64,000 bases of DNA, taken from an uncultured Bdellovibrionales bacterium. Its GTDB lineage: Bacteria > Bdellovibrionota_G > JALEGL01 > JAGRMV01. The notes below the pieces were generated by a model that saw only the letters and a list, made by a program, of their open reading frames with translations, ran no database searches and had not been told where the DNA came from. The first letter of the stretch is position 1. Each line of letters starts with the position of its first letter. The position numbers were made by a program, and so were the translations under genes. The DNA lies in contig CAZCBX010000001.1 of assembly GCA_964497185.1 (NCBI GenBank), positions 5,333 to 69,332 on the forward strand, given 5' to 3'. Below are positions 9,746-61,079 of this stretch, in pieces.

Positions 9746-9764
9746 GCTTTTCAAGATAGCCCAA

Positions 9765-9780: not shown

Positions 9781-9871
9781 TGATGCCATCCTTTGATCAA
9801 CCCGACGGCCATCCCAATCCAACACCGATATTTCAAAAATATTCCTAGGCAAGCGTGGCAATCCAGGCATA

Positions 9872-10618: not shown

Positions 10619-10640
10619 AAAGACGCACCTCTTCACATAA

Positions 10641-10656
10641 TGTTCCACGTGAAACA
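10641..10656. other. parS site (TGTTCCACGTGAAACA)
   Basis: Exact match to the Bacillus subtilis-type parS 16-mer as I recall it (Lin and Grossman). Confidence 0.75.
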
Positions 10657-10709
10657 TTTATGATGTTTTGGGGACAAACAATTGAGGTTTCTGTCCCCAA
10701 AAGCGGTTG

Positions 10710-10725
10710 TGTTCCACGTGGAACA
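10710..10725. other. parS site (TGTTCCACGTGGAACA)
   Basis: Perfect 16-bp palindrome about 85 bp upstream of mnmG. Confidence 0.72.
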
Positions 10726-10805
10726 TTGGAGATGGAAAATGTTCATGGCCAGCCGTAAGGGCCTGCTTTCTTCTTTCGATAAAATGACCAATGTGGTAAG
10801 AACGG

Positions 10806-43151: not shown

Positions 43152-44567
43152 ATGAATTCAATATTGCGATACTTAATGTGGGGTGTTGGTGCGATTGTGG
43201 TGCTGTACGCATTGTTTTTTATCGCCTTGGAGACGGTGGGGGATCATTACATTCAAAAAAACCTGACCCAAGCTGCGCAACAACCGTATCAATTCGACCT
43301 CTCCATTGGCACCATAAGCCACTCTTTCTTTAAGCCCACACGGACCAAGATCAAAAATGCAGCATTGACGTATCAAAAAAACAAAGTCGTTGAAATCGAG
43401 CGCATGAAAATTGATTTGAGTGTCTTGGCGTTGATGAAACAAAAACTAAAAATCACCACTTTTGATTTCAAAGTCGCATCCTTGACCTTGAAGCCATCCT
43501 TGCTGGATCATGTTCAACAAGTGCAACCACCCGCTGACAAAGCGACATCCAAACCAGCATTGCCATTGGGCATCAACCGCTTGGAGTTGGTAGACAGCAA
43601 GGTGGAAGTGGACAAAGCCACTTATCAAAAAATGGCGTTGTCATCCTTGGTGCTTGAAACAAAAGATCTGAAAGTTGCATCCATAACTTCCCTTCTGTCC
43701 ACGCTATCGTGGAAAGCCACCATGCAGTTTCAACAATGGTCCCATCCCTACGTCGCCCTTGAAAATTGTGACATGCATATCAAACTGCAAAGTCAAACAA
43801 TGGACATCCAAAACATCCAATGCAAAGCCGAGGGCCAAAACCTTCAAGCGCAAACCACGTTTCAACTCTCACCCCTGAGCGACATTCACTTAAAGCTTCA
43901 ATACGATCAAATCGATCTAAAAAAATGGTCCAGCCAAGTGGCGCCAGAGCTGGGCTATCCCATATCAGGCCAGCTCAACCTACACACGGATGTACGCGTA
44001 GCGGACCTCCAACAGTGGCAACAAGCGCAAGGTCAAGTGCGGGTTGAAGGGCAAAACATTGTAATTGAAAACATCAACATCGACCGGTTGATTGATGCCT
44101 ATGTGCAAAGCAATCAGACCAGTTTGCTCAACGTGGCTGGTTTTATGGCACTGGGCCCCGTCGGCATTTTGGCCACGCAGTCGGCTAAGCTGGGCAAAAA
44201 CATGCCGGGCCTTATGCAGGGGCAAACCAAAATGGAAACGTTGCACGTGGAATTGGAAATTGCAGACCAATTGGCCAAGACCCAAGATGTTGCATTCAAG
44301 ACGGCCAAACATCGGGTGGCGGCCCAAGGCGCCATTGATCTCAAAGAACAAACCTACCAAAATTTTGAAATTGGATTTTTGGATGCCCAAGGCTGTGCCA
44401 AGCTGGTGCAAACCATCGAAGGCTCGCTGACCCAACCTTCGTTTCGCATCACGCGTTCATTGATCAAAACCATCACCGCCCCGGTGACCAACATGACAAA
44501 TAGAGTAGAAAACATGCTGACAGGTGGCTGTGAAAAATTTTACCAAGGCACCGTTGCACATCCTTGA
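43152..44567 (+). CDS. AsmA-family (outer-membrane biogenesis) protein; 3' ~300 bp belongs to the island-flanking direct repeat
   Basis: N-terminal TM anchor then long beta-rich domain, AsmA-like C-terminus; last 294 bp duplicated at 60783-61079. Confidence 0.5.
   Translation: MNSILRYLMWGVGAIVVLYALFFIALETVGDHYIQKNLTQAAQQPYQFDLSIGTISHSFFKPTRTKIKNAALTYQKNKVVEIERMKIDLSVLALMKQKLKITTFDFKVASLTLKPSLLDHVQQVQPPADKATSKPALPLGINRLELVDSKVEVDKATYQKMALSSLVLETKDLKVASITSLLSTLSWKATMQFQQWSHPYVALENCDMHIKLQSQTMDIQNIQCKAEGQNLQAQTTFQLSPLSDIHLKLQYDQIDLKKWSSQVAPELGYPISGQLNLHTDVRVADLQQWQQAQGQVRVEGQNIVIENINIDRLIDAYVQSNQTSLLNVAGFMALGPVGILATQSAKLGKNMPGLMQGQTKMETLHVELEIADQLAKTQDVAFKTAKHRVAAQGAIDLKEQTYQNFEIGFLDAQGCAKLVQTIEGSLTQPSFRITRSLIKTITAPVTNMTNRVENMLTGGCEKFYQGTVAHP
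44274..44567 (+). repeat. Direct repeat A (AsmA 3' end; left island junction)
   Basis: About 97% identical to 60783-61007 over the first ~225 bp; the last ~70 bp diverge, and the two copies differ in base composition there. Confidence 0.8.
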
Positions 44568-44582: not shown

Positions 44583-45956
44583 TTATTTCATCATTTGCAA
44601 ACGTTTCATACGTCGAATCAGAGAAGATCTCGAAATTCCTAACAAAGTGGAGGCTTTTTGTTTTTGCCCAAAAGCTTGATCCAGTGCTTTTTGAATGAGC
44701 TGTTTTTCATACGCGTCAAGGGCCTGCTCAAATTGATTCATTGGCTTGTTGGCAGTCGATGAAGCGGGGGATGTGTTTTCCAAAACATAGGCTGGAATAT
44801 CCTGTGACGTTAATTCGCGATGGTCGGATAACACCAACATGGCATCTATGACATTAAACAACTGTCGTGCATTGCCAGGCCAGTCCATGCTGGATAAGCG
44901 TGCTTTGGTTTCTGCATGGATGGTTTTGTTTTCTTGATTGTGCTCGGTTCGTTCAAGATAATAGTCTATTAAAAGCGGGATGTCCTCTCGGCGTTCACGC
45001 AGGGGCTCCAAATGAAGCTGCACTACCGATAAACGGTAATACAAATCTTCCCGAAAAGTGCCCTCTTGGATTTGGATGCGCAAATCTCGATTGGTTGCGG
45101 CAATGACCCGAAAATTGGACTGAATCATCTGATGGCCACCAACCCGCTCAAATTCTTTTTCTTGTAAGACCCGCAAAAGTTTGGACTGTAGATGCAAGGG
45201 CATCGAACCGATCTCATCCAGAAAAATATCTCCGCCGTTGGCCAATTCAAACTTTCCGATTTTTTGTCGATCGGCTCCCGTAAACGCACCCTTTTCATGG
45301 CCAAACATGATCGATTCCATAAGCTCAGATGGGATGGCTGCACAATTAAGTGCTACGAAGGGCCGTGAATTTTTTTTATGCATGGAGTGAATATATCGAG
45401 ACAGCACCTCTTTGCCTGTCCCGCTTTCACCAATGATCAATACATTCACTTCTGCGTTGGCTACTTTTTGACTGACGAGGCGAAGTTTTTGCACATTTTC
45501 AGATCGACCAATGTATTCTTTGGCCACAGGCTCTGAAGACGAATCATAAATTGGATCATCAAATTGCCAAGCGATTTTACGAATGGATTTTTCAACCGTC
45601 TTATGAAGGTCATCTTTTTCAAATGGTTTGGTGATGTAATCCACGGCGCCAATCTTAAGTGCTTTGGCAATGGATTGCGAGTCGCGATCTCCAGTGAGCA
45701 TCAAATATTGGACATGTTTTCGCTTTCGCTTAAGTTCAGACAAAAGTGCAATGCCGTCGTCCTGATCCAAATGAACATCCAGAATCACCAAATCAGGATG
45801 ATTTTTTTGAAATATTTGTTTTGCCTCATCTCCAGTTTGGGCAGTCCATAAATCGTATCGCTCAGAAAGCTCTAATTTCAATGAGGCGAGAATACCGGGA
45901 TCATCATCGACACAAAGAATAGAAGGCTTGGTACGCATGTTATTTTTCCCTTTCAT
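44583..45956 (-). CDS. Sigma-54-dependent response regulator (NtrC/LuxO-like bacterial enhancer-binding protein)
   Basis: Receiver domain; AAA+ sigma-54 activator domain with GAFTGA (EKGAFTGA); C-terminal Fis-type HTH. Confidence 0.88.
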   Translation of the reverse strand: MKGKNNMRTKPSILCVDDDPGILASLKLELSERYDLWTAQTGDEAKQIFQKNHPDLVILDVHLDQDDGIALLSELKRKRKHVQYLMLTGDRDSQSIAKALKIGAVDYITKPFEKDDLHKTVEKSIRKIAWQFDDPIYDSSSEPVAKEYIGRSENVQKLRLVSQKVANAEVNVLIIGESGTGKEVLSRYIHSMHKKNSRPFVALNCAAIPSELMESIMFGHEKGAFTGADRQKIGKFELANGGDIFLDEIGSMPLHLQSKLLRVLQEKEFERVGGHQMIQSNFRVIAATNRDLRIQIQEGTFREDLYYRLSVVQLHLEPLRERREDIPLLIDYYLERTEHNQENKTIHAETKARLSSMDWPGNARQLFNVIDAMLVLSDHRELTSQDIPAYVLENTSPASSTANKPMNQFEQALDAYEKQLIQKALDQAFGQKQKASTLLGISRSSLIRRMKRLQMMK

Positions 45957-46137
45957 CCATTTGGTCCACCAACGCTTCCAAACGATCCAACGCCTGACCC
46001 GTGAACTCGTAAAAATCCTTCATAAAAGCTTCATCTTCTTTTTTGCTCGGAAGATGCCGCATAAAAGTACGAAGGGTTGTCAGTGGTTGCCGAAGATCAT
46101 GTTGAAGATTTGAAAAAGCCATTGTAGAAGTCTCCAA
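45940..46137 (-). CDS. 65-aa standalone H-box (HisKA/DHp-like) protein, candidate phosphotransfer component
   Basis: NLQHDLRQPLTTL matches the histidine-kinase H-box consensus (hELRTPL); 17-nt overlap with the sigma-54 regulator start suggests translational coupling. Confidence 0.4.
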   Translation of the reverse strand: METSTMAFSNLQHDLRQPLTTLRTFMRHLPSKKEDEAFMKDFYEFTGQALDRLEALVDQMDEREK

Positions 46138-46220
46138 TGCGTATTAGCACAAGCCATGCCATATTTTTACACCACTGGGTGGTCCATAACACACCCATTT
46201 GAATCAATACAGTACACACC

Positions 46221-46235
46221 GTTCGATATCCGAAC
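46221..46235. promoter_or_regulatory. Palindromic operator candidate GTTCGATATCCGAAC in the divergent promoter region
   Basis: Perfect inverted repeat GTTCG-N5-CGAAC about 65 bp upstream of the receiver gene; related copy at 53062-53076. Confidence 0.4.
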
Positions 46236-46300
46236 ATCAATCATGGTCTGCACAAAGATAAACTTGCCATATAACGCCTAACAATAGTATAAAAAAATCA

Positions 46301-46651
46301 ATGAGCCATACGCATTCACTCAAACAAATCTTGGTTCTCATTGATGATGACCCACTGATTCACGCCACATGGTCCATGGTGGCTCAAGCAAAAGGCCATC
46401 AACTTCAATGCTTCACGTGCATTGAAGACTTTAATCAGGCAAGTATCCCCCTGGACGTGCCTGTCTATGTTGATTACCACTTGGGAGAAAAATCGGGCGC
46501 CGACATCATCAAACGCTTGGCTCAAAGAGGGTACGATCATTTATACATCACCACCGGTCGAAAACCCACTGACATCATCAAAGAACCTGAAATGAAAGGA
46601 GTATTTGGCAAAGACTATCCAGAGCAAATTCCTCATTCCAGCTCTTTTTGA
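46301..46651 (+). CDS. Single-domain response regulator (CheY-like receiver only)
   Basis: 116 aa; acidic pocket IDDD; phospho-acceptor in VYVDYHL; conserved Thr (YITTG) and Lys. Confidence 0.75.
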   Translation: MSHTHSLKQILVLIDDDPLIHATWSMVAQAKGHQLQCFTCIEDFNQASIPLDVPVYVDYHLGEKSGADIIKRLAQRGYDHLYITTGRKPTDIIKEPEMKGVFGKDYPEQIPHSSSF

Positions 46652-46677
46652 TAAAAATCGGATGAATACTACACCAA

Positions 46678-48453
46678 CTAAACAATCGGAATTTGCTGAG
46701 CTAAACTTTTAGGCAATATTTTTAATTCAGTTTTCATGGCCAAATCCAGAAGACTTTCGTCCGCATAATGACTCGAAACCAATATAGAATGGTTTTCTAA
46801 GACATTTCGGTGAATGATTTCTTGCCCGTTCACGGGGCTGCCCAGCAGCTCGTAATCAACAAGAAATAAATAGCCCGTTAGCGAAGGCAACACAGAAATC
46901 CAATTTTCAAAAGAAGTAGAATCATAAAAATGGTGCAATTTGATATGATGGCTGATTTTAAAGTTTTGGAGTCGGTTTTTCCAAACTTGGTGAATGGAAG
47001 AGTCGTCATCAAGAATAATGACATTGGTTATTTGATTCAACGCGATAGAAGAGGGAAACCATGCAGGCGTCCGGGTTAAAGGAAAAATCATTTCTACTTC
47101 CGTACCGCGCCCAGGAGTGCTGGTGATTTCAATGGAGGCACTTGCTTTGTGTAAGTTTTTAAAAGCATGATACAAACCCAGTCCTTTGCCAGAAATTTTT
47201 CTATAGCTAATTCTGTCTCTGCCAAGTTTTTCTAAAACATCAGAAGGAATGCCAACACCATTGTCAGTAATTTTTACACTTGCATGATGGTCTTTTTTGG
47301 TCAAAGATATTTCTACACGCCCCTTAGACGGGATAGACTCAATGGCATTGGATAAAATATTTGAAAAAACTCTTTTCAACTCAACACTGCTAAATTTTAC
47401 AAAAGTATCAAAGGAGTGATCGGAAACAATAAAATCAATGGTAACTTTATCAATTTCTTGATGCTGAATTCTTTTTTCAGCCAGCACATGTTCGATTAAA
47501 ACGACAAGCAGTACAGGTTTTAAATTTTGATCGGTATATTCATCTTCGCTAATATTCGTCAGCGTACTTACAATGCCGTCAATTCGGTTGGTTGCTTCAC
47601 GGATAAGTAAACGATAGTTTTCTGGAATCTCATTTAAAGAGCCCGTAACCACCTTCAAAGCAGTCAGGGGTGATCTAATATCATGAACAACTTGATTGGC
47701 GACGGAGATCACACCTTCTTCTCTAGATTTTTTAGCCAATTTTGCTTGGGTTTCTTCTATCATTCGATTGTATGCATTAAATGCTAAGCTAAGAGTTTGA
47801 ATTTCGCCTACGCCCCGAACTTCTTCAATATTTTTTGCTCTTTTCATGACATCTTGGGTAAGTTTTCTGATAGGTCTTTCAAGATTTTCTATGATCAAAA
47901 GCATAATGCCACTAAAAATGAAAAATACGGAGGTAAAATAAAGCAAATATTTATAAAATTCCTGTTTGAATTCTTGTAAAAAGGAACGGCTTGAAATTTT
48001 TGCAACTATATTTCCCCATTCAGTGCTGTATCGATCTATCAGTTTTATGTTTAACTCAAATTGTCTGGTATTAAAGAAATAATCAATGAATGACCATGTA
48101 TCTGTCAAACCATGTTCACTTCCAACTAAAAATTCCTCTGCCCCGTAGTTGAGCTTTACGTATTGAAAAGATCCATTTTTTACAAGATAGTCCATTTTTC
48201 TTTGAACCGAAGCATATTTGCCCACTTGGAGGTCACTTAAAAAAGATTGTGAGTAGACATTTAGCCATTGGTTTTGATTTTCTACAAAAGTAGAAACGTG
48301 GTCACGAAATGTGGTGAAAGTAAATATTCCAAAAATAAAAAAAAGAGATAAAAAAATCGCTCCCAGCGTAATCATTAATTTTTGTCTAAACAGCATGGAC
48401 TTACTCATTAAAATAAACACTTTCCCACTCAGCCAGGTAACCTTTGATGCCAA
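46678..48453 (-). CDS. Hybrid sensor histidine kinase (HisKA + HATPase_c + C-terminal receiver-like domain)
   Basis: H-box VHDIRSPLTAL; G-boxes (ITDNGVGIP, GKGLGLY); C-terminal ILDDDSSIHQVW...LVDYEL receiver paralogous to the standalone receiver. Confidence 0.82.
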   Translation of the reverse strand: MASKVTWLSGKVFILMSKSMLFRQKLMITLGAIFLSLFFIFGIFTFTTFRDHVSTFVENQNQWLNVYSQSFLSDLQVGKYASVQRKMDYLVKNGSFQYVKLNYGAEEFLVGSEHGLTDTWSFIDYFFNTRQFELNIKLIDRYSTEWGNIVAKISSRSFLQEFKQEFYKYLLYFTSVFFIFSGIMLLIIENLERPIRKLTQDVMKRAKNIEEVRGVGEIQTLSLAFNAYNRMIEETQAKLAKKSREEGVISVANQVVHDIRSPLTALKVVTGSLNEIPENYRLLIREATNRIDGIVSTLTNISEDEYTDQNLKPVLLVVLIEHVLAEKRIQHQEIDKVTIDFIVSDHSFDTFVKFSSVELKRVFSNILSNAIESIPSKGRVEISLTKKDHHASVKITDNGVGIPSDVLEKLGRDRISYRKISGKGLGLYHAFKNLHKASASIEITSTPGRGTEVEMIFPLTRTPAWFPSSIALNQITNVIILDDDSSIHQVWKNRLQNFKISHHIKLHHFYDSTSFENWISVLPSLTGYLFLVDYELLGSPVNGQEIIHRNVLENHSILVSSHYADESLLDLAMKTELKILPKSLAQQIPIV

Positions 48454-49954
48454 TAAATTTGATATTTTTTAGATTTTTACTGGTGACGATCTTGGATTGA
48501 TTATGAACAATCGGGTAAGCCAAACTCTTTTTAATAAGGTAATGATCAATCGATGAATAAAGCCTAAATTTTTCCTCTATGGTATTGGATTTTTTTAGAT
48601 TTTCAAAATAAGTGTCTAAATCGTCGTGTTTTCCACCGATAAGATATTCATTTGAATCTTTGTAAAAATATTGCAAGGCGGACATGGGGTCTTCATTTTT
48701 AAAATAAAGTTTTTCAATCCAGACTGGAAGTTTTTGATTTTCATACAATTTGAATATTTCTGAAAAGGGAAGTACGACGGTTTCAACGCCGATTTCCAGC
48801 AAAGGCTTCCTAACAATGTCCAAAATGCAGTCCACCTGCTGATCATCAGCGATATGGAAGACCAAATTGTTAAATTTTTTATTTTTCACAACAGTTTGTA
48901 TATCCTCCTTATAACTCTGCGAAGAACCAATTAATCCTTTTGGAATAATCGAACTGGCTACGTTTTGATTCCCGTAGCAAACCTCTCGAATTTTATGAAT
49001 GGGAATGTTTGACAGTAAATATTTTCTGTACTCAACATTTTTTAATTCATCAAAATGATCTGAATTGATGATAATTGTTTCCGTACTGTATTCAGCAATC
49101 TCTTGATACGCAAAGTGGTCCAATTTTTCGATCTCAGAAAAATCGTCAATGCTATAAAAAATAAGATCCGCAACCTCACCAAGCTTGTACTTTTCTATGG
49201 CAACAGACTTTGCCTGCTGTGAAATAACAATGGTTTTGATTTTGGGTGCGTCGCCATAGTAATACTGATTTCTAGAAAGCTTGATCTCACCTTTTTTTGT
49301 TTCCACGACTGCATAAGGACCAGAAGAAACCGGGTATGAAAAATACGCCTCTTTTGCCATGTCACTAAAATTGTGTGGATAAATACAAAACCGCGGAAGG
49401 GAAAGGTTCATCATAAATTGATCGTAAGAATGAATAAGCTCAATATCAAGTGTCCGGTTGTCAACAATGCGGATACCATTTATGAATGGATTTTTTTCTT
49501 CTCTATACTCTTTTGCACCCAAAATTTGTGTTAACACGCTGCTATCCAGAGCATCTTTGTCGACCCATTGATGGAAAGAGAAGGCAATATCTTTGGCATT
49601 GATTTTTTCGCCATTAGAAAACCGAACTTCATCACGAAGATGCAATCGATAAATTTTTTTATCGGTATCAAATTCCCATGATTTCAACAAATCAGGCTTA
49701 ATGCCAAATGAATCATCCACCTTCACCAAATGGCTATAGATTGGATACAGTAGAGCTTTTTGAATAGAATCAGGGACTTTTTGTGGATTGAGGTTGTCAG
49801 GACGGACCGGAACCAAAATATTCCATACTTTGCTTTGGCTTGAAATTCTTTTTTGGTTAATTCTAGATAATTTTCCGAGAGAAAACGAATAAACCAAAAT
49901 TAAAATTCCAGTAAAAATGAGTATGAATGGCGCATATTTTTTCGGCATAATCAT
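48401..49954 (-). CDS. Periplasmic solute-binding protein, family 5 (Opp/Dpp-like), encoded without an ABC permease or ATPase
   Basis: 517 aa with signal/anchor; SBP_bac_5-like sequence; 53-nt overlap with the downstream kinase gene. Confidence 0.68.
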   Translation of the reverse strand: MIMPKKYAPFILIFTGILILVYSFSLGKLSRINQKRISSQSKVWNILVPVRPDNLNPQKVPDSIQKALLYPIYSHLVKVDDSFGIKPDLLKSWEFDTDKKIYRLHLRDEVRFSNGEKINAKDIAFSFHQWVDKDALDSSVLTQILGAKEYREEKNPFINGIRIVDNRTLDIELIHSYDQFMMNLSLPRFCIYPHNFSDMAKEAYFSYPVSSGPYAVVETKKGEIKLSRNQYYYGDAPKIKTIVISQQAKSVAIEKYKLGEVADLIFYSIDDFSEIEKLDHFAYQEIAEYSTETIIINSDHFDELKNVEYRKYLLSNIPIHKIREVCYGNQNVASSIIPKGLIGSSQSYKEDIQTVVKNKKFNNLVFHIADDQQVDCILDIVRKPLLEIGVETVVLPFSEIFKLYENQKLPVWIEKLYFKNEDPMSALQYFYKDSNEYLIGGKHDDLDTYFENLKKSNTIEEKFRLYSSIDHYLIKKSLAYPIVHNQSKIVTSKNLKNIKFIGIKGYLAEWESVYFNE

Positions 49955-49956
49955 AT

Positions 49957-51816
49957 TTATAGTTTGTTTTCAAACATGATTCCAAAATTCATTGATTCTG
50001 GATCATCATAATAATCTTTGAGTAATCCCAAATCAGTTGCGCCTGAGCTTGTGGCGGCACGGTAGCCATATTCATTGTATTTGGATATTTTTAAACCAGA
50101 ATGATACTGATCGATGGAAATCCCAAGCTCATGCCAATAGGCAAAGTTAGGGATTCGTATTCCATAAAAAATAGATTTAATGGCCTCTTCTTTATAAAAG
50201 ATCTTTGCAGCACGAATAATTTCAACTGCTGTCCCTATGGGCGCGTCTGGTAAGACAGAAATGGAAACAATGTATCTAGAATCAAAGTTGGACAAGGTTT
50301 TTTTAGCATAATCAATGCATGCATAATGATGCCACTTATGTTTTTTCATGGCTTGACTTTGATTGCATGGTACTGAATAGATAAAACCCACTGGTTTTCC
50401 TTTATTTCGGCTATAAGCGATCAGAAAATTATCAGGCTTTATTTTTAGTCTTTCTCGAATGGTTTCTTTGCTGGCGGCATGTTTTTTGAGCCATGATCCA
50501 TCTTCAATGTTGGATAAAATATCTACATCGCTTTCAAGAGCTTGAAATACAGCAATTTGATCTTTGGTGCGTGTAGTTGTTTTAGAAATGTATTTTTGAA
50601 CAGAAAAAGAAAAATCATCCAATTTTTGATTGAAAGACGAAATTCTTTGGGCAATCCTGGGTTGCTCATTGGATTCATTGGTCCATAAAACTTCTTTGTT
50701 CCCAACCAGCAAGGTGAGTTGATTTTGCTGCGCTTTTTCTAAGTCCAAATCAAAAACTCTTCCTTCATATGGATTGGTTAAAAACTCCCCCGTCCACCGA
50801 CCGTTTAATTCTATATCACCATCTTTCAAGGGTTTGCCAAGGGCCGTGTGGATAAGAAGCTCACCTATGTTCTCGTTTATTAAAGTTCGATTGATAAGCT
50901 CAGGCATATAGTCACCGGCTATTCGTGCATTGACTTCAATGAGAACAGGCATTTCATTGACCAGCTTAAATTCAATATGTGTCCAAGAGTTTTGTATTTT
51001 TAATGTTGTGTGACATGCCTGCGCGAAATTTTGGATGGCCTCCAAAATTTTCTCATTTTGAATATTGGTTGGAAAAGTATCGGATAATTCATTGGTGCAG
51101 TGAGTTTTTTTATCCGTAATACCAATGACGTGCGTTTTTCCATTGAGCACCATAGACTCTACACTGTACTCGTTGCCATAGATGATCTCTTCAACGACAA
51201 TGTCTTGAGTAATGTTACCATAAATTTTTCGTAAATTCTCCTCATGAAAATCAATGGTTCTTAATTCTTGTATAGCACCAAACAGTTCTTTTTCATTGTT
51301 GATGATTTGAACGCCAAGGCTGGCCATCATTTGTGCAGGTTTGATGATGAATGGAAACGCTAAATTTTTTTCCTTTAATTCATCATAAGTCGGACTTGCA
51401 TCTGAAAAGTAATAAAAATTTGGATTATAATGTGAAAAGGAACTTTGAATTTTCTCTCGCACTAAGCCTTTGTGTCGATAACTTGCTTGCGGGTCTTGAC
51501 TAATTGAAGGCAATTGAAGATCCATTTGCAGTTGATTGCAAAATCCCACGGAGGTCTCAACCCAACACAACGCCCCACAGATTTTCAACTGATATTTGGA
51601 AGCATATTGTTTGGTTTGCTGGGTTAAGTCATGGTGGCTTTGATAATCAAATACAAAGCCTTTAATAGAATATTTTTCTTCCAACCAGGAATAGTCCATA
51701 AAGGCAAGACCCTGAGCGTAAATAAAATGATAATCGGTGTTTTGCTTTAGTTGTTCCACCAAGTAAGCTTTGGAAGATTGAAAACCAGGTTCGACAATGA
51801 TGATTGTTTCTTTCAT
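49957..51816 (-). CDS. ATP-grasp ligase fused to a ~220-aa C-terminal domain of unknown function
   Basis: 619 aa; N-terminal ~400 aa ATP-grasp fold (carboxylate-amine ligase-like); extra C-terminal domain. Confidence 0.6.
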   Translation of the reverse strand: MKETIIIVEPGFQSSKAYLVEQLKQNTDYHFIYAQGLAFMDYSWLEEKYSIKGFVFDYQSHHDLTQQTKQYASKYQLKICGALCWVETSVGFCNQLQMDLQLPSISQDPQASYRHKGLVREKIQSSFSHYNPNFYYFSDASPTYDELKEKNLAFPFIIKPAQMMASLGVQIINNEKELFGAIQELRTIDFHEENLRKIYGNITQDIVVEEIIYGNEYSVESMVLNGKTHVIGITDKKTHCTNELSDTFPTNIQNEKILEAIQNFAQACHTTLKIQNSWTHIEFKLVNEMPVLIEVNARIAGDYMPELINRTLINENIGELLIHTALGKPLKDGDIELNGRWTGEFLTNPYEGRVFDLDLEKAQQNQLTLLVGNKEVLWTNESNEQPRIAQRISSFNQKLDDFSFSVQKYISKTTTRTKDQIAVFQALESDVDILSNIEDGSWLKKHAASKETIRERLKIKPDNFLIAYSRNKGKPVGFIYSVPCNQSQAMKKHKWHHYACIDYAKKTLSNFDSRYIVSISVLPDAPIGTAVEIIRAAKIFYKEEAIKSIFYGIRIPNFAYWHELGISIDQYHSGLKISKYNEYGYRAATSSGATDLGLLKDYYDDPESMNFGIMFENKL

Positions 51817-51827
51817 TGATTCTCCGT

Positions 51828-52991
51828 TTAAAAAAAAGAATGGGGCCAGTTTGTAATCATGTTTTCAATAAAATTGGAAAGGGCTGGCATTGTCCAGAAT
51901 CCAATGTGAACTGAAGCAATATAAGGCCCAACCAAACAAATAAAAGCATCAAAAGCCAAAATGCGGTTGATGTAAGGTCCACTTAACTTTTTATAGGAAA
52001 ATAAATAATGGTCAATATTGGGCAGTTGATATGCTTCACAAACACTCCACACCACAAAAAATGGAATCCCAAGCCAGAAATTAGAAATGAGCAGCATGAT
52101 CGTGCAGAAAAAAGCAATTAAGCTAATAACATCATAGCGGCGCAAGGAAAATTCCAAAATTTTTGTCTTTATGGAAATAAGTTGAATCAAAATGACAGCA
52201 ATGGGGTTAAAACCCAATATTATTGCACTATACTTTGCTTCTAAATTGATGGCACTGGCTTTGATGGGTATGGCAGAAATCATAATGGCATAAGGAAGTA
52301 CAAACCCCAAAAAGCGTAAAACATCTTGCAAGACGTTGTGGATCGAAGCAATGCTTTCAACTTCTAAGTGGTTTGATTCCACTTGCTTGGTTTCTTTAGC
52401 AGAATCAAATGTGAATGGCTGATCCAGCCACCGCAAGATTTTCGAGGATATAACGGCGCCAGCGCTCCCTAGTAAAAAAACAACAAGAGTCGGAAAGGAC
52501 GCTTCCAACAGAAAAGCACCAACAAGCGGAAAAACAAGAAAAGCCAGATTGGTGGTGATGCCAAATAAAATGTATAAATTACCTTTTCCCTTGTAAAAAT
52601 TTACAAACTCACCCAGCAGATAACGACTTTTTTTGTAATAAATGGCCTGGGACAAACCAAAAGAAATAAAACTCACAATTTGCAATATCGGGACAGGTAC
52701 GAAAATAAGACAAAGGGCAGCCATTCTGGTGCAAAGCATCAAAGCAATGTGGGTTGTCCATTTTTCTCCGAAAAAGGAAATCAACCACACGCCCCCCACC
52801 TGCAGCCCAGCAAAAAGCCCCATGCCCAAGATGATGGCAGAGCGCAGCTTTGTTTCTTCAATGGGTAGATGCAAAAAAAGCGCATTCACGCCAATGTAGG
52901 CATAAGACCCAAAGAAGAAAAAATTCGAAAGGCCCAGAAGCCCAAGTTTTGAAAACAGTCTATTCATGAATAATGATTGCCTATAGAGCAT
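51828..52991 (-). CDS. Polytopic membrane protein (10-12 TM), possibly a transporter
   Basis: Hydrophobic helices throughout; start adjusted to ATG (MLYRQSL). Confidence 0.5.
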   Translation of the reverse strand: MLYRQSLFMNRLFSKLGLLGLSNFFFFGSYAYIGVNALFLHLPIEETKLRSAIILGMGLFAGLQVGGVWLISFFGEKWTTHIALMLCTRMAALCLIFVPVPILQIVSFISFGLSQAIYYKKSRYLLGEFVNFYKGKGNLYILFGITTNLAFLVFPLVGAFLLEASFPTLVVFLLGSAGAVISSKILRWLDQPFTFDSAKETKQVESNHLEVESIASIHNVLQDVLRFLGFVLPYAIMISAIPIKASAINLEAKYSAIILGFNPIAVILIQLISIKTKILEFSLRRYDVISLIAFFCTIMLLISNFWLGIPFFVVWSVCEAYQLPNIDHYLFSYKKLSGPYINRILAFDAFICLVGPYIASVHIGFWTMPALSNFIENMITNWPHSFF

Positions 52992-53061
52992 AAACCATAC
53001 CAACTTTTTAAGTTCTAGCCACTGGATTAGCTTATTTTAAACCATGTATTTGATTGAAGAT

Positions 53062-53076
53062 GTTCGGTATCCGAAC
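53062..53076. promoter_or_regulatory. Palindromic operator candidate GTTCGGTATCCGAAC (second copy)
   Basis: Extended palindrome ATGTTCGG-TAT-CCGAACAT in the divergent intergenic region. Confidence 0.4.
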
Positions 53077-53141
53077 ATAATGTGCAGACCGCTGAGATAT
53101 ACGTTCGTCAATTGATGCCAAACAAGAGTATAAAAAGATCA

Positions 53142-53345
53142 ATGAGCCATACGCATTCACCCAAACAAATCCTAGCCCTCATTGATGATGACCCACTGAT
53201 TCACGCCACATGGTCCATGGTGGCTCAAGCAAAAGGCCATCAACTTCAATGCTTCTATTCGCTAGACAAGTTTTGCACTGCATATGTCCTCATTTATACA
53301 TATATTTTTGTTGGCTATCATTTAAATGACAGAAAAGGCACCTAA
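53142..53345 (+). pseudogene. Truncated duplicate of the single-domain response regulator 5' end
   Basis: First 38 codons (MSHTHSPKQILALIDDDPLIHATWSMVAQAKGHQLQCF) near-identical to 46301-46414 (~77 bp identical at DNA level), then unrelated sequence and early stop. Confidence 0.6.
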
Positions 53346-53744
53346 GTTATAAAAAAGTTGGCCAGAAGCGGTTTTTCTTCGCTCTTTATTACAACTGGAC
53401 ATGACAAAAGCACCATTCATTCTTTTTCCCCAGCGAGAGCTGTTTTTGGAAAAAATTATCCTTAGTTCATATGAGTGAATATGTTGTCAGCCCCAAGATA
53501 AATATTTCAGTTGCTATCACTAAATCGAACAAATGTGATTGGAATCCAAACAAATCATTAATTTCTTTCCCATGGGTTTTGGCGGGTTTTCAGTCATCTT
53601 TATCTTTATTTTTTTGATTAACAGAACCTATCTAAAATCTTATAGCGTTTGGAAATAGAACGAACTTGTTCTGTTTCCAAATTATTTTTGTAGAAATAAT
53701 GCATCCTTTCCAGGATACGGTACGGTTTTTTTTACTTTAACCGT

Positions 53745-53760
53745 TGGCATACTCATTGCT
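53745..53760 (+). promoter_or_regulatory. Candidate sigma-54 (-24/-12) promoter for the biosynthetic operon
   Basis: TGGCAT-actca-TTGCT with GG-N10-GC spacing; imperfect palindrome TTTGGAAATAGAAC-gaac-TTGTTCTGTTTCCAAA at 53650-53684 about 90 bp upstream could be an enhancer-binding-protein site. Confidence 0.4.
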
Positions 53761-53772
53761 CTATGCCTTCAC

Positions 53773-55059
53773 ATGAAAATAAAAAATGTTGTACAAAGAA
53801 ACTGGCAAAAAGAGAAAATTAAAAAATCATCATTTCACCAAAATCTTTCCTTTAGCTCTGGCATTAACAACAAAAATGTCACTTCAAGAAAAGAGAAATG
53901 GATCGAACTTGCAGATGGAACCAGCGCCACAGAATTCATGTCTTGCTCATACCTGGGATTAGAAACTGACAACCGCCTTAAGAATGCCGCACTAAGTGCT
54001 ATCGATCAATATGGTGTGCAACTTGCTGTAGCTAGAACCAGAATCAAACCAATCATTTGTGAAGAGCTTGAAGAAAATCTACAAACCATTTTTCAAGGCC
54101 CTACGGTTACGTTTAGTACTGTAGGTCTAACTCACCTTGCCATCTTCCCTCTTCTAGGGGCTGGTGTTTTACCGTCGTATCCAGTGAGTGTCAATGGGCC
54201 GCTTTGGATCATGGATAAGACATCTCATGCTTCCATTCAGATTTTACGGGGTATCATGCAACAAAATGGTGAAGTGATTCGGGTATCATTCTCTGACCAT
54301 CAGGCACTTGCAGATGCATTTCAGTATGCACATAAAAGCCAAAGAACGCCTATCTCCATATCTGATGGTGTTGGTTCTATGGGAGGAGATGCTCCGGTTC
54401 GACTTCTAGTAGAACTTTCTTACAAATACAATGGATATGCATACATTGACGATGCCCATGGCACGTCAATTATGGGTAAATACGGAGGGGGATATGTCAT
54501 TCACGAGCTAAATGACACTCTCGATCCAAGAGTGATACTGGTCTCATCACTTTCGAAGGCATTTGGAGCCACTGGAGGCTGTGTAACGGTCCGAAGTCCT
54601 AACGATAAGGACACCATTCAACGATTTGGAACACCATATATCTTTGGCGGGCCTGTTTCACTTCCCGGTATCGCTGCAGCCCTTGCATCATCTGAAATTC
54701 ATATACAAGATGAAATCTATACGCTGCAAAATAAACTACAAGAAAACATAAAGCACTTTGATACCTTGGCTGGCAATAAGACAATTAACTTCAAAAAACG
54801 CATTCCCATTCGTGGTCTTGTTGTGGGGGATGAGGTGAAGTGCCTTAGCGTTTCAAAACAAATGTGGGAAAGAGGTTTTGGAACGACCGCTGCTATGTAC
54901 CCGACGGTACAAAAAGGCGAAGCCATGCTCCGCGTAGCGCTTTCCGTCCTCCATACAAAAAAACAAATAGAAAACCTCATTTATACGTTTCAGCATGCAA
55001 GACAAGGTTTGCATATTGTCACAGACACTCTCAAGGGATCCTCCAATGTACACGTATAA
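53773..55059 (+). CDS. PLP-dependent alpha-oxoamine synthase (BioF/Kbl/SPT/CqsA/LqsA family)
   Basis: 428 aa; N-terminal SYLGLETD motif; PLP-lysine motif SLSKAFGATGG; no bioA/B/D genes nearby. Confidence 0.75.
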   Translation: MKIKNVVQRNWQKEKIKKSSFHQNLSFSSGINNKNVTSRKEKWIELADGTSATEFMSCSYLGLETDNRLKNAALSAIDQYGVQLAVARTRIKPIICEELEENLQTIFQGPTVTFSTVGLTHLAIFPLLGAGVLPSYPVSVNGPLWIMDKTSHASIQILRGIMQQNGEVIRVSFSDHQALADAFQYAHKSQRTPISISDGVGSMGGDAPVRLLVELSYKYNGYAYIDDAHGTSIMGKYGGGYVIHELNDTLDPRVILVSSLSKAFGATGGCVTVRSPNDKDTIQRFGTPYIFGGPVSLPGIAAALASSEIHIQDEIYTLQNKLQENIKHFDTLAGNKTINFKKRIPIRGLVVGDEVKCLSVSKQMWERGFGTTAAMYPTVQKGEAMLRVALSVLHTKKQIENLIYTFQHARQGLHIVTDTLKGSSNVHV

Positions 55060-55909
55060 ATGTAAGACCGGATCCTCATCAATCCTACCTAATGGTAATG
55101 ACGTGCGGGCAAAATTATCAAAACATGGAGCTGTACTCTTTCGGGGGTACCGAATCTGCGTGAAAAATTTTGATCAGTATACAAATCAATTTGGTAACGA
55201 ACACTTGATTCATGGATCTATAAGGAAAAAAATTAATGCCAAAGATACCATTCAAGATGTCACAAAAGGCCAGGGAAAAGTATTGCCCCATATAGAAATG
55301 GGAAGAATGCCTACAAAACCCAATCAAGTTTGGTTCTTGAGCGAAAAGCCGGCTCTTATCGGGGGCGAAAGTACACTCGTTGATGGTATCAAGGTTGCTG
55401 AAAGCCTACCTGATCATGTGCGTAATTTCTTTAGGGATAATCCTATTTCTTTTCAAGCAAAAGTTTCTAAATTCTCTTGGCAGAGACTTTGGGGTATCCA
55501 AACACTAAGCGAATTAAAAGATCGTATGGATATGCTTTCCGTAAATCCTAACATTTCATTTGAGATGAATAAAGAAGATGAATCATTTATTGGAAGATAC
55601 AGCACCAGCGCATTTATCACTCAACCTGATGGAAAATTAGCTTTTAGTAATAGTATCGTAGGACCTTATGAAGGCCCTAGTGGAGGAGAATGCAGAATGC
55701 TAAATGGCAATCCAATTCCATCATCAATAATCGAAACCATCTTGAATTGCTACCAATACAATATGAACACAATTACCATGGATCCCGGAGATTTTATGGT
55801 CGTTAACAATCATCGCTTTATGCATGGCAGAGAAGCGTTTCGAGTAAAACCAGGTGATACAAGAAAAATGTATGCAAAACTTATCAAAGGAGAATTTCAT
55901 GCAATCTAG
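55046..55909 (+). CDS. Fe(II)/2-oxoglutarate-dependent dioxygenase (TauD/TfdA / clavaminate-synthase-like)
   Basis: HxE-type motif (PHIEMG) and distal HRFMHGR; start adjusted to MYTYKCK, 14-nt overlap with the upstream gene. Confidence 0.58.
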   Translation: MYTYKCKTGSSSILPNGNDVRAKLSKHGAVLFRGYRICVKNFDQYTNQFGNEHLIHGSIRKKINAKDTIQDVTKGQGKVLPHIEMGRMPTKPNQVWFLSEKPALIGGESTLVDGIKVAESLPDHVRNFFRDNPISFQAKVSKFSWQRLWGIQTLSELKDRMDMLSVNPNISFEMNKEDESFIGRYSTSAFITQPDGKLAFSNSIVGPYEGPSGGECRMLNGNPIPSSIIETILNCYQYNMNTITMDPGDFMVVNNHRFMHGREAFRVKPGDTRKMYAKLIKGEFHAI

Positions 55910-56951
55910 TCTAAAAGTGAATCAAATGATTCAACACGATACAAAACCTACACTTCAAGACCGCTCATTGGTTCAAATTATTACTTCTTATAGAAGCGCC
56001 AGCGCTTTGTATGCTTTTGTGAAGCTCGACCTCCCTACATTCATTCACAACAATTCTTCACCAACACTGAAGAAAGCTGCTTTTTACTCTGGTGTTCCCA
56101 TCGAAAAACTATCTCGACTCATGGATGTCATTGCCATGGAACAAATCGTAGCGATCGAAAATTCTTGTTTACACCTAACAACCAAAGGCAAACAATTGGC
56201 TACAGATAAGAGCCTAAGAGACTGGATTTTATGCGAGCTTAGCCCTACCTATTGGAATGTCTGGGCCAACCTAACAGACGCCCTCCAACAAAACATAGAC
56301 TGTGCTTTCGACTCTACACACAACCAGTCCTTTTTTCCCTACCTAAAAGAGAATGAGAATTTTCATAAACTATTTCAAAGCGTCATGACAAATTACTCGA
56401 TTCGAGCAGGGGCAGAAGTCGCGAAAGCAATCAACTTTGAGGATGATAAAAAAATCGTAGATGTGGGTGGAGGCCACGGCCACATGCTTTTTAGCATCCT
56501 CAAAGCCAATCAACACCTTCATGGATGCGTATTCGAGCTGCATGAGAATTATAAAGGATTTCAGATTGAAAAACAAAAAACCGGGCTTCTTGATCAAAGA
56601 GCAACTTTCCAATCCGGCAATTTCATGCATGAAGCTATTCCAAGGTGTGACACAATCATCATGAAAAATATTATTCATGATTGGGACGATGAAAATGCCG
56701 TTCATATACTTTCAGCATGTAGACAATCCCTGAAAAACAACGGCCGTATCATCCTGGCGGAAATTTTGAAATCTGAGGATCCACTTGACTCTTTAGGTAA
56801 AAGTTTGGATCTGCTTATGATGCTGCTATTCAATGGGAAAGAGCGAAATTATTCGCAATATCAATCTTTGGCTGAACAATCAGGCCTAACCATCAGCAAC
56901 ATCTACCCAACTAGAGGACCGCTTTCGTTGATTGAACTGAGAAAGGCATGA
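55899..56951 (+). CDS. Class I SAM-dependent O-methyltransferase (dimerisation domain + Rossmann fold)
   Basis: SAM motif VDVGGGHGH; start MQSSLKV preceded by AAAGGAGAA; 11-nt overlap with the dioxygenase gene. Confidence 0.75.
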   Translation: MQSSLKVNQMIQHDTKPTLQDRSLVQIITSYRSASALYAFVKLDLPTFIHNNSSPTLKKAAFYSGVPIEKLSRLMDVIAMEQIVAIENSCLHLTTKGKQLATDKSLRDWILCELSPTYWNVWANLTDALQQNIDCAFDSTHNQSFFPYLKENENFHKLFQSVMTNYSIRAGAEVAKAINFEDDKKIVDVGGGHGHMLFSILKANQHLHGCVFELHENYKGFQIEKQKTGLLDQRATFQSGNFMHEAIPRCDTIIMKNIIHDWDDENAVHILSACRQSLKNNGRIILAEILKSEDPLDSLGKSLDLLMMLLFNGKERNYSQYQSLAEQSGLTISNIYPTRGPLSLIELRKA

Positions 56952-57910
56952 ATATGCGTTGCTATTGGGTAGTTTGTTACAAAGATTTTGACGAGCAAAC
57001 GAGAAAAAAAATTGAAAACAAGTACCACAAGATGTTTCAAGAAGCATCAGAAAAGCACGGAATATCATTTTCGTTCATCGATAGTGAGGATCTCTCCATA
57101 ACATGTGATCATAAAACGAATATATGCTTGGGTAATCAGAATATTGCAACCGAAGATACAGCGTTTTTGATTTCAAATTTTAGTATGGACCCAAAAAGAA
57201 AGCGATACTTAGATCAGCTTTATTATGCTTTCCTTGAAAGCGACAGTACACTCCTTAACAAAACATTCTATCATGGGGCGCACCTTGAGAAAAATAAGTT
57301 TTCTATGACGCAACTCATAACTCAGCTTGGAATACCTAATATACCTACACACTTCATGAAACCCTCAGGTGATCTAAAACACGCAGAATTATTTTATCAG
57401 AACCACTGCATTGATCATGGCGCAATGCTAAAACCCAATGAAATGGGCATGGGCATTGGTATTTCTCATTGCAAATCCTGGCAAGATACCAAAGATACCT
57501 GGCAGCGTGATGGAAAAGACGTTGATTATATTTTGCAGCCCTATATTCCGCATATAGGAGATCTAAGATTATACCTTTACAACCACAGTGTTGTTGAGGG
57601 TCAATTTCGCATTGTTCCGAATGGACGACATCAAGCCAATATCTCTCAGGGTGCAATGAGCAAAGATGTTGAGTTCCCACAAGCATTACGAACTTTAGCA
57701 AAAAATATAAGTAGACACGTCGGTGCTGAGCAGTGCTGCATTGATTGGCTCATCACAGAAAAATCATTTTTCTTTAACGAAATCACAACAACACTAGGTG
57801 GGTTCACTGGGCTAAAGGAGAGCAAGCAAAAAGTGCTTGCAGACAGACTATTTAATTACATCCAATACCGTATAACATCGAACAAAGAAAAGAGAAACGT
57901 ATGGCCCTAA
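56948..57910 (+). CDS. ATP-grasp family ligase (RimK/GshB-like)
   Basis: 320 aa; ATP-grasp C-terminal half (DYILQPYIPHIGDLRLYLY...EITTTLGGFTGL). Confidence 0.6.
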   Translation: MNMRCYWVVCYKDFDEQTRKKIENKYHKMFQEASEKHGISFSFIDSEDLSITCDHKTNICLGNQNIATEDTAFLISNFSMDPKRKRYLDQLYYAFLESDSTLLNKTFYHGAHLEKNKFSMTQLITQLGIPNIPTHFMKPSGDLKHAELFYQNHCIDHGAMLKPNEMGMGIGISHCKSWQDTKDTWQRDGKDVDYILQPYIPHIGDLRLYLYNHSVVEGQFRIVPNGRHQANISQGAMSKDVEFPQALRTLAKNISRHVGAEQCCIDWLITEKSFFFNEITTTLGGFTGLKESKQKVLADRLFNYIQYRITSNKEKRNVWP

Positions 57911-60414: not shown

Positions 60415-60782
60415 TGAAAACAGGAGTATTTGATAGAATTATCTTTGGATAACTGATTACTGACTCGAAATGAAATGAACACTAGGTTGCATTCTTTTTA
60501 GTACAATAGAAAAAGTCACCAGAAAGAGCATCATGTTATCGCATTTATAGACTCTGAATTTATTCCATATACTGCCCCAGGCTCGTAGATCGCCCCAGAT
60601 TTATTGAACGAGTAAAATAATTTAACCAACAAGACTTCTACTTCGAGAATCACAGGCTTGTAGTGTGTCTTCTATTTTTTTGGGCAGCTCGGTAAGCTGG
60701 TGTCCATGAATGCCATCGACCAAGGCATGGTGGGCAGACACGTTAAAGAAAAAAGAAAATCTATTTGGGCTGCGTTGGTATC

Positions 60783-61079
60783 TTGGCCAAGACCCAAGAT
60801 GTTGCATTCAAGACGGCCAAACATCGGGTGGCGGCCAAAGGCGCCATTGATCTCAAAGAACAAACCTACCAAAATTTTGAAATTGGATTTTTGGATGCCC
60901 AAGGCTGTGCCAAGCTGGTGCAAACCATCGAAGGCCCGCTGACCCAACCCTCGTTTCGCATCACGCGATCATTGATCAAAACCATCACCGCTCCGGTGAC
61001 CAACATGTCCGACCGCGTAGAAAACTTGCTGACCGGGGGCTGTGACGTTTTTTATCAGGGCACCGTTTCGCACCCCTAA
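60783..61079 (+). repeat. Direct repeat B: orphan AsmA 3' fragment (right island junction)
   Basis: Encodes ...LAKTQDVAFKTAKHRVAAKGAIDL...CDVFYQGTVSHP, near-identical to the C-terminus of the full AsmA gene but with no upstream coding context. Confidence 0.8.

Follow-up and report, generated by a model that had tools for sequence, protein, structure and literature searches.

A 60-residue DHp-only protein in a putative phosphorelay ending at a sigma-54 activator in an uncultured Bdellovibrionales bacterium

Genes and features of the locus

We analysed a 64,000-nucleotide stretch of DNA from an uncultured Bdellovibrionales bacterium (contig CAZCBX010000001.1, positions 5,333 to 69,332; this whole stretch is referred to as the window and is numbered from its first letter). 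The locus under study spans positions 44583-53003, where a program-made list gives seven open reading frames (ORFs), six on the minus strand and one on the plus strand. It appears somewhat more probable than its alternatives combined that this region encodes a multi-step His-Asp-His-Asp phosphorelay, in which the histidine-phosphotransfer step would be carried out by a 60-residue protein consisting of a dimerization and histidine-phosphotransfer (DHp) hairpin and nothing else, here called mini-DHp. The genes and control elements that carry this reading are as follows.

44583-45956, minus strand: NtrC-type sigma-54 activator with a receiver (REC) domain, an AAA+ domain (GAFTGA) and a Fis-type helix-turn-helix (HTH) domain, from Pfam and residue positions.
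45940-46122, minus strand: mini-DHp gene, 60 aa, a HisKA-type helical hairpin only, from Pfam, family alignment, AlphaFold2, Foldseek and substitution rates (pN/pS).
46146-46161, minus strand: sigma-54 promoter TGGCATGGCTTGTGCT, 23 nt 5' of the mini-DHp ATG, from cross-locus conservation and a position weight matrix (PWM).
46220-46236, unstranded: palindrome CGTTCGATATCCGAACA, candidate activator site, from motif conservation.
46301-46651, plus strand: REC*, a divergent 116-aa single-domain receiver transcribed away from the mini-DHp operon, from hhalign, PDB profile search and AlphaFold2/Foldseek.
46678-48408, minus strand: membrane histidine kinase, 576 aa, from Pfam and residue positions.
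48401-49954, minus strand: orphan family-5 solute-binding protein (SBP), 517 aa, from Pfam SBP_bac_5.

An earlier first-pass annotation, made from the sequence alone, had inventoried the genes of this region and proposed domain searches of each. Every gene that it named is present where it was placed, according to the ORF list, Pfam and gene calls, and Pfam families were found on the regulator, the mini ORF, the kinase, the SBP and a 619-aa protein further upstream. The gene calls of the JGI metagenome annotation agree with this layout and include a 60-aa gene labelled 'HisKA (weak)'. The mechanical lengths in the ORF list and the likely lengths of the products are 457 and 451 aa for the regulator, 65 and 60 aa for the mini ORF, 591 and 576 aa for the kinase (ORF 46678-48453) and 391 and 379 aa for a membrane protein (ORF 51828-53003).

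A gene for a single DHp hairpin

The TTG that opens the mini ORF (45940-46137, minus strand) is only a mechanical boundary; the gene-caller start is the ATG at 46122, which has a GGAG ribosome-binding site. The 65-aa H-box protein that had been reported as overlapping the regulator start is real, with 60 residues when counted from this ATG, and its phosphorylatable histidine (H8) is both present and invariant. HisKA is the sole Pfam family on the ORF (30.3 bits against a cutoff of 26.9, E 4.5e-7), with H8 as the histidine, and Pfam found neither a HATPase_c catalytic domain nor an Hpt family on the polypeptide. AlphaFold2 models the protein as a two-helix hairpin (pLDDT 90.8), and its 12 best Foldseek matches in the PDB are all DHp domains of kinases (query-normalised TM-score 0.64-0.84). 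This is also seen at the profile level, where the family profile covers the whole of mini-DHp when aligned to the DHp domains of ThkA (3a0r, E 3.7e-5) and WalK, with the phospho-histidine in register. The chain stops after helix 2, and a C-terminal degenerate catalytic alpha/beta domain is absent, all members of the family being 58-95 aa long.

A homology search with the single mini-DHp sequence matched only itself, and the family was recovered by reading orthologous loci and then using their alignment as the query. The alignment-based search, over 5.8 billion proteins, gave 14 clusters that share the invariant H-box GHDLKQPLTTLRTF and 21 invariant columns, including G-H-D-L-K/R-Q-P-L-T-T-L-R-T-F and H8. 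In an exhaustive hidden Markov model (HMM) scan of 1.84 billion representatives, four mini-DHp representatives score at least 83 bits and are separated by a gap from full-length kinases (~540 aa), which reach at most 64 bits; the nearest of these full-length relatives are AtoS/ZraS-like kinases, according to both the HMM scan and NCBIfam. The family appears to be narrow, with four clusters at 50 % identity and all members on metagenomic contigs or contigs of metagenome-assembled genomes. Its motif found no member among 185,579 GTDB species representatives, only spurious matches (Natronomonas, Rhizobium, Mycoplana), and a scan of metagenomes for the motif added three further short loci only. 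A more distant short protein in the representative library, P0146 (69 aa, IIHDLRQPMATMRSF...), has the same DHp-only layout and matches the family profile with E 5e-10; DHp-only proteins may occur beyond this clade.

Across loci the mini gene is a 58-95-aa ORF directly 5' of the regulator gene, which it overlaps (ATGA) or from which it lies no more than 8 nt away, and its GGAG ribosome-binding site is retained, as is the coupling of its stop to the start of the regulator gene. Between loci, non-synonymous differences amount to 0.09-0.38 per site (pN) against saturated synonymous differences of 0.65-0.96 (pS). Given this strong purifying selection and conservation, the mini ORF is a real gene and not a chance ORF, and these comparisons identify it as a selected protein-coding gene that encodes exactly one DHp domain. 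Since mini-DHp has no ATP-binding domain, it cannot be a kinase. In the source annotation it is named 'signal transduction histidine kinase' and REC* 'FixJ family two-component response regulator'. These names claim too much, mini-DHp being without a catalytic domain and REC* without a DNA-binding domain; the label 'histidine kinase' is misleading, and its correction in databases would concern proteins that are unable to be kinases.

The sigma-54 activator, the stand-alone receiver and a conserved trio

The regulator is an NtrC-type sigma-54 activator carrying GAFTGA, as the first-pass annotation had described it, and its gene is coupled to the mini gene. It has the full NtrC-family architecture of a REC domain, a sigma-54 AAA+ domain with GAFTGA and a C-terminal HTH, with Pfam matches to Response_reg (E 2.7e-26), Sigma54_activat (E 7e-70), AAA_lid_14 and HTH_8. 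Its likelier start is the ATG at 45938, one base after the mini-gene stop; in the resulting 451-aa form GAFTGA occupies residues 217-222, and a Walker A motif is present together with D11-13, D54, T82 and K104, of which D54 is the putative phospho-acceptor. Orthologues of the regulator form a group at 59-69 % identity, and remoter relatives at 47-55 % are named Bdellovibrionales or Bdellovibrionota by NCBI. In NCBIfam it scores under every equivalog cutoff, and its score on the LuxO model NF041946 (327 bits against a cutoff of 800) lies below its scores on the NtrC, PEP-CTERM and AtoC models.

REC* matches nothing in Pfam at default thresholds (E 0.07 at best). Its family profile nevertheless aligns to canonical REC domains in hhalign (96.5 %, E 8e-10), with the acidic pair, the phospho-Asp and the Thr all aligned, and receivers are the best matches in a PDB profile search. 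In the AlphaFold2 model confidence is good for residues 10-88 only and low in the C-terminal third; a Foldseek comparison with the PDB gives receiver domains for all of its top 50 matches. D15, W24, D58 and K104 are invariant in the family alignment and a T/S after beta-4 is conserved, the catalytic set of the window protein being D15-17, D58, T84/85 and K104. On this evidence REC* is a divergent but real receiver domain with its catalytic residues intact, which bears out the separately encoded single-domain receiver of the first-pass annotation. It had been treated there as incidental, but it turns out to be the most consistently linked partner of mini-DHp.

This linkage was assessed in nine complete, Bdellovibrionota-like metagenome loci (the window, L004, L005, L008, L012, which is identical to L013, L014, L015, L016 and L017), drawn from the contexts of regulator orthologues, from loci with the family motif and from the contexts of three family members; a further locus, L006, ends before the REC* position. 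The REC* gene (102-129 aa) is divergent from the mini gene in these nine distinct loci and is present in every complete locus that bears an H-box mini-DHp. In seven of the nine, the trio of REC*, mini-DHp and sigma-54 regulator stands without kinase, SBP or biosynthetic genes nearby, with no kinase within 8-10 kb. The neighbourhood of the trio in the main clade is one of conserved housekeeping genes (a glnA-like gene, FKBP, panD, a SpoU methylase and oligoribonuclease on one side and an RDD protein on the other). It is these comparisons that identify the trio as the conserved core, and the seven loci without a nearby kinase or SBP indicate that the SBP-kinase pair is an accessory input and not part of that core.

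L007 is the only related locus without REC*. The receiver residues of its regulator are intact, and a small ORF without an H-box occupies the mini-gene position; this ORF was considered as a member of the mini-DHp family and rejected (hhalign probability 0.5 %). The joint absence of REC* and the H-box at L007 fits a scheme in which the histidine and REC* would work together.

Conserved sigma-54 promoters and palindromes

A sigma-54-type promoter, TGGCAT-N5-RTGCT, lies 15-30 nt 5' of the mini gene at every one of the 11 loci examined, with the variant TCGCAT in L014. In nine of them a GTTC[GT] motif lies 74-80 nt 5' of this promoter; L008 has it at 100 and 53 nt, and L015 has GTCCG. The motif often forms part of TGTTCG-N4/5-GATAC/CGAAC, and several loci have it twice, 21 nt apart. 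This conservation makes it very likely that the operon of mini-DHp and the regulator is sigma-54-dependent and autoregulated.

Further matches to the family-type promoter were observed in intergenic positions of two relatives, at 5210-5225 (plus strand, 16.8 bits) in L004 and at 11350-11365 (minus strand, 14.3 bits) in L005. They lie ahead of a WD40 beta-propeller gene in one case and of a gene for a 333-aa protein of unknown function in the other, and may represent additional regulon members in these relatives.

The membrane kinase and its solute-binding protein

The first-pass annotation had paired a family-5 SBP with a hybrid histidine kinase carrying a C-terminal receiver. The SBP and its coupling hold: Pfam assigns it to SBP_bac_5 (PF00496, E 4e-39), it has an N-terminal hydrophobic segment (an anchor or signal sequence), and its gene overlaps the kinase start by 8 nt. 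In NCBIfam it has only sub-threshold matches to NikA, Opp, CntA and DppA and is thus generically of family 5. Pfam found no ABC permease or ATPase family on the ORFs of at least 150 aa in 41.8-63.9 kb, and an SBP without nearby transporter genes would fit a dedicated sensory role, like that of CBP with ChiS.

The kinase has transmembrane segments at 11-29 and 155-173, a histidine at H242, a HATPase_c domain (E 4.8e-19) and a weak HisKA match in Pfam. Its C-terminal ~120 residues show a receiver-like pattern (DDD467-469, D518, S545/546, K567) and match REC* in BLASTP (E 4e-4); the hhalign probability is low (17 %). A second kinase (754 aa) lies 2.4 kb downstream of the regulator in L008. The two belong to the same subfamily, with similarity in the transmitter core and over the last ~120 residues (E 3e-34, or E 6e-10 for the C-terminus by itself) and with different sensor regions, so that a kinase subfamily with a like C-terminal domain adjoins the trio in two distant genomes. 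The C-terminus of the L008 kinase is matched by an HMM of the stand-alone REC* (E 1.8e-4) and that of the window kinase is not. The window protein is therefore described here, tentatively, as a probable hybrid kinase, the receiver being the part of the earlier pairing that stands less firmly.

Two observations concern other kinase genes near the trio. In L008, at 9415-11787, the gene 5' of the 754-aa kinase encodes a 389-aa product that shares the N-terminal sensor region of this kinase; out-of-frame fragments (11520-11722) matching the C-terminal half of the REC* profile follow it, and the whole looks like a tandem paralogue of the kinase in decay. The two most distant genomes also encode, a few kb from the trio, a large hybrid kinase (HisKA-HATPase-REC) with a second kinase-like core, at 1552-4716 in L007 (1054 aa) and at 1337-4557 in L008 (split into 782 and 296 aa).

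A duplicated control region in front of the island operon

Upstream of the SBP gene, the operon continues into an island of biosynthetic-looking genes with the following features.

49957-51816, minus strand: ATP-grasp ligase, 619 aa, L-amino-acid-ligase-like, with an uncharacterised C-terminal domain (Pfam ATP-grasp_4 E 2e-24; weak DdaF/BacD).
51828-52967, minus strand: multi-pass membrane protein, 379 aa, at the head of the island operon (gene-caller start; ~7-8 hydrophobic segments).
52987-53002, minus strand: duplicated sigma-54 promoter TGGTATGGTTTATGCT, 19 nt 5' of the membrane-protein ATG (PWM).
53061-53077, unstranded: perfect palindrome TGTTCGGTATCCGAACA, duplicated candidate activator site (mismatch scan).
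53142-53345, plus strand (ORF 53082-53345): decayed REC* paralogue (repeat D2, HMM).
53745-53760, plus strand: candidate sigma-54 promoter TGGCATACTCATTGCT, 12 nt 5' of the aminotransferase ATG (one mismatch to TGGCAC-N5-TTGCW).
53773-60414, plus strand: divergent biosynthetic-looking operon, from an aminotransferase to an MFS transporter (Pfam).

The genes for the membrane protein, the ATP-grasp ligase, the SBP and the kinase follow one another with gaps of at most 11 nt and form one tight operon, in which the first two are not genes for signalling. With a PWM built from eight orthologous mini-gene promoters, the two best matches in the window are those at 46146-46161 (20.5 bits) and 52987-53002 (15.9 bits), and the palindromes at 46220-46236 and 53061-53077 are the only matches with no more than two mismatches in the 64 kb. 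The spacing between promoter and palindrome is 59 nt in both copies; when the two are aligned, the palindrome and promoter blocks are conserved and the ~50-nt spacer between them has diverged. The presence of palindrome and promoter at the same spacing before the membrane-protein operon indicates that the island operon carries a duplicated copy of the control region of the trio. The tie to the neighbouring biosynthetic genes that the first-pass annotation had proposed gains support from this duplication.

Both palindromes lie at the left ends of a repeat, D2, which spans the control region together with a 5' portion of the REC* gene. In its copy B (53062-53345) the N-terminal 38 residues of the REC* product are nearly identical to REC*; thereafter the phospho-acceptor D is replaced by G (VGYHL), and the ORF ends after 68 residues. 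The HMM match (E 1.5e-22) covers profile positions 1-64 only. As judged from this repeat, the decayed REC* marks the duplication that put palindrome and promoter before the island operon.

The plus-strand operon comprises, in order, genes for an aminotransferase, a TauD-type dioxygenase, an O-methyltransferase, a RimK-type ATP-grasp protein, an AMP-binding-like protein and the MFS transporter. Neither Pfam nor NCBIfam gave a family match for the membrane protein at 51828-52967, and the ATP-grasp ligase shows weak DdaF/BacD similarity and has an unassigned C-terminal domain of ~200 aa. Taken together, the two divergent operons (49957-52967 and 53773-60414) resemble a small gene set for the synthesis of a modified amino acid or dipeptide. 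Only 12 nt separate the end of the promoter TGGCATACTCATTGCT from the annotated aminotransferase ATG, without a recognisable ribosome-binding site. This promoter is the weakest candidate of the three, as its position would imply a near-leaderless mRNA unless the promoter or the start call is wrong. Between the decayed REC* and this promoter, a hairpin with a 16-bp stem (53647-53682, GTTTGGAAATAGAAC...GTTCTGTTTCCAAAT) is followed by a T-run. Its GAAC/GTTC half-sites are arranged oppositely to those of the palindrome, and in view of this and of the T-run it is treated here as a possible terminator and not as a second activator site, although it may also be a regulatory site.

The trio appears to have arrived with the island. 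The last 115 codons of an AsmA-like gene (43152-44567) are duplicated at 60732-61076 with 82 % amino-acid identity, the downstream copy being a gene fragment, and a 293-nt direct repeat (44271-44563 and 60783-61075, 92 % DNA identity) brackets a 16.5-kb block of lower GC. The downstream AsmA copy has a GC content of 0.52, like the flanking chromosome, against 0.42-0.45 for the regulator, mini gene and REC* and 0.35-0.42 from the kinase to the MFS transporter. Given the repeated AsmA 3' end and this GC contrast, the block, trio included, appears to have been inserted together with an AsmA 3' end of its own, possibly through homologous recombination with a related donor. No integrase or tRNA was found at the block. 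The D2 repeat is a further duplication inside it.

A proposed phosphorelay

A kinase, an intact receiver, a DHp protein without a catalytic domain and a terminal REC-AAA+ regulator together have the anatomy of a relay of the Spo0F-Spo0B-Spo0A type. From this anatomy we infer the steps and direction of phosphotransfer as well as the DNA binding, regulon and ligand. A histidine kinase would autophosphorylate; here this would be the membrane kinase, with probable input from the co-translated SBP, and in most relatives it would be unlinked kinases. The phosphate would then pass to D58 of REC*, and possibly also to D518 of the receiver-like domain of the kinase, and from there to H8 of mini-DHp, which presumably forms a four-helix bundle as a homodimer, in the manner of the N-terminal part of Spo0B, ChpT and PhyT. 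Mini-DHp would in turn phosphorylate D54 of the NtrC-type regulator, which in its phosphorylated form would bind the GTTCG-containing palindrome ~75 nt upstream and activate sigma-54 promoters. Its proposed targets are its own operon with mini-DHp (positive autoregulation), the operon of membrane protein, ATP-grasp ligase, SBP and kinase, and possibly the divergent biosynthetic operon, which would make the circuit self-reinforcing. As for the SBP ligand, one may reasonably guess at a small peptide-like compound made by the neighbouring ATP-grasp pathway; cell-cell signalling by this circuit is pure inference. The suggestion in the first-pass annotation that a DHp-like mini-protein stands in for an HPt protein fits the invariant H-box, the complete DHp fold, the coupling to the regulator and the co-conservation with a receiver.

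Several observations weigh against this relay. A linked kinase is found only in the window and L008 (two of the nine loci), and support for a receiver at the kinase C-terminus is weak, this segment of the window protein being undetected by Pfam (E up to 10), by the PDB profile search and by the HMM built from the stand-alone REC* only. The joint loss of REC* and the H-box is seen at a single locus, L007. The generic sigma-54 consensus shows no excess in the window (52 matches, with 60.7 expected), so the promoter argument rests on position and homology and not on match counts. To our knowledge, all DHp-type phosphotransferases keep a pseudo-catalytic domain, and in the searchable literature, which is incomplete, we found no documented precedent for DHp-only, stand-alone DHp or HisKA-only proteins; nothing relevant was found on a Bdellovibrio phosphorelay with sigma-54. 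Lastly, the residue four positions after the histidine (H+4) of mini-DHp is an invariant Q, which neither proves nor excludes phosphatase activity.

This last point bears on the strongest alternative, which we consider unlikely though worth serious attention, namely that mini-DHp is a negative modulator that speeds dephosphorylation of the regulator or sequesters its receiver, with REC* serving as a competitor or phosphate sink. In EnvZ, the DHp domain on its own keeps phosphatase activity towards OmpR~P, and small helical hairpins of the Spo0E family dephosphorylate Spo0A~P. PhyT-type proteins, too, were initially taken for phosphatases or negative regulators (PMC5898713). Transcription of the mini gene together with the regulator gene, under an autoregulated promoter, would likewise be in keeping with a built-in brake. 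However, the invariant histidine, the H-box and the strict co-occurrence with an intact receiver are more simply explained by phosphotransfer, and position H+4 is T or N in the phosphatase motifs of HisKA proteins, not the Q that is invariant here.

A distinctly less probable alternative is a split kinase, in which mini-DHp would be phosphorylated in trans by the catalytic domain of another kinase, for example within a heteromeric helix bundle, and would then phosphorylate the regulator directly, leaving REC* as a side branch. In its favour, the closest full-length relatives of the hairpin are of the AtoS/ZraS type, the class that partners NtrC-type regulators; this suggests that the hairpin descends from the former cognate kinase of the regulator and may keep its docking specificity. 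Yet the window codes for no catalytic domain as a separate protein, its kinase has an intact H-box of its own (H242), a kinase within 8-10 kb is missing from most loci, and the constant pairing with REC* would be left unexplained. That the mini ORF is a decaying, functionless remnant of such a kinase gene is highly improbable, for although it is short, lies where the cognate kinase gene would end and has AtoS/ZraS-like proteins as its best full-length relatives, its conservation rules out a pseudogene, with purifying selection, constant length, ribosome-binding site, coupling and a dedicated sigma-54 promoter all maintained despite saturated synonymous sites.

If the phosphorelay is correct, a bare hairpin forming a four-helix bundle would be enough to shuttle phosphate between two receivers, and a hairpin that relays phosphate would define the minimal unit for His-Asp phosphotransfer. 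A compact three-gene cassette of receiver, hairpin and sigma-54 activator would then join the known phosphorelay architectures and offer a very small, defined part for the study or engineering of relay specificity. The duplicated enhancer and promoter would, in addition, provide a clear example of how acquired biosynthetic genes are wired to an existing signalling module. A broader proposal, which we advance tentatively and regard as rather doubtful as a whole, is that DHp-only proteins of ~60 residues are an undescribed minimal class of histidine phosphotransferase, and that the relay couples an orphan peptide- or opine-type SBP to sigma-54-driven autoinduction of an ATP-grasp natural-product pathway. 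This would be a quorum-sensing-like circuit of an uncultured Bdellovibrionota lineage, assembled by copying the enhancer and promoter of the relay before the acquired genes.

Comparison with known systems

The first-pass annotation had likened the locus to the LuxPQ/CqsS-LuxU-LuxO cascade of Vibrio. The architecture is indeed alike, with a periplasmic SBP, a membrane kinase (a probable hybrid kinase here, as in the LuxPQ/LuxN/CqsS-LuxU-LuxO system), an intermediary histidine carrier and, as the end point, an NtrC-type sigma-54 regulator with GAFTGA, but no homology to LuxP, LuxQ, LuxU or LuxO was found beyond the superfamily level. The SBP is of family 5 (NikA/Opp/DppA-like) and not of the LuxP-type ribose-binding-protein fold, which does not sustain the proposed LuxP-like pairing. 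LuxU is a monomeric HPt four-helix bundle and not a DHp domain, and no HPt domain is present on mini-DHp and no other small HPt candidate in 44.5-53 kb. Nor is the regulator a LuxO orthologue, given its score on the LuxO model. LuxO directly targets the Qrr small RNAs, whereas the promoters here precede protein-coding operons, and no Rfam family reached its gathering score in 40-64 kb, thus no Qrr or other RNA. With these defining features absent, true homology to the Lux cascade was rejected and has next to no probability.

The regulator is comparable to the REC-AAA+-HTH regulators of NtrB-NtrC, AtoS-AtoC and ZraS-ZraR, and mini-DHp is nearest to the AtoS/ZraS-like kinases. In contrast to those systems, the kinase partner is here reduced to a DHp hairpin that is incapable of autophosphorylation.

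An SBP gene beside that of a membrane kinase recalls TorT-TorS and AioX-AioS-AioR, the latter of which also ends in a sigma-54 regulator. It likewise recalls CBP-ChiS, where a periplasmic SBP is the ligand sensor of a membrane kinase in the chitin sensing of Vibrio (PMC12704726, PMC10667598). Unlike the present locus, these systems are without a DHp-only intermediary.

The closest logic is that of Spo0F-Spo0B-Spo0A and SdrG-PhyT-PhyR, which share with CckA-ChpT-CtrA the passage of phosphate from a receiver to a histidine on a kinase-derived hairpin and on to a terminal DNA-binding regulator. Spo0B, ChpT and PhyT are dimeric kinase-derived phosphotransferases that link a single-domain receiver to a terminal regulator (PMC5898713, PMC3433190, PMC9981736), and mini-DHp has the helical hairpin with a conserved phosphorylatable histidine (H8) of this type. 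The F/Y-I-T-T-G sequence after beta-4 of REC* recalls, as a lead only, the intermediary receivers described with degenerate C-terminal halves and a FATGUY motif (PMC9981736). Spo0B, ChpT and PhyT, however, keep a C-terminal pseudo-catalytic alpha/beta domain, whereas mini-DHp is a bare 60-residue hairpin, and for this reason it is not filed as a member of their group. The locus differs from those relays further in its ordinary HisKA-type H-box, in the sigma-54 AAA+ protein that serves as terminal regulator and in the fixed arrangement of the three genes as an autoregulated cassette.

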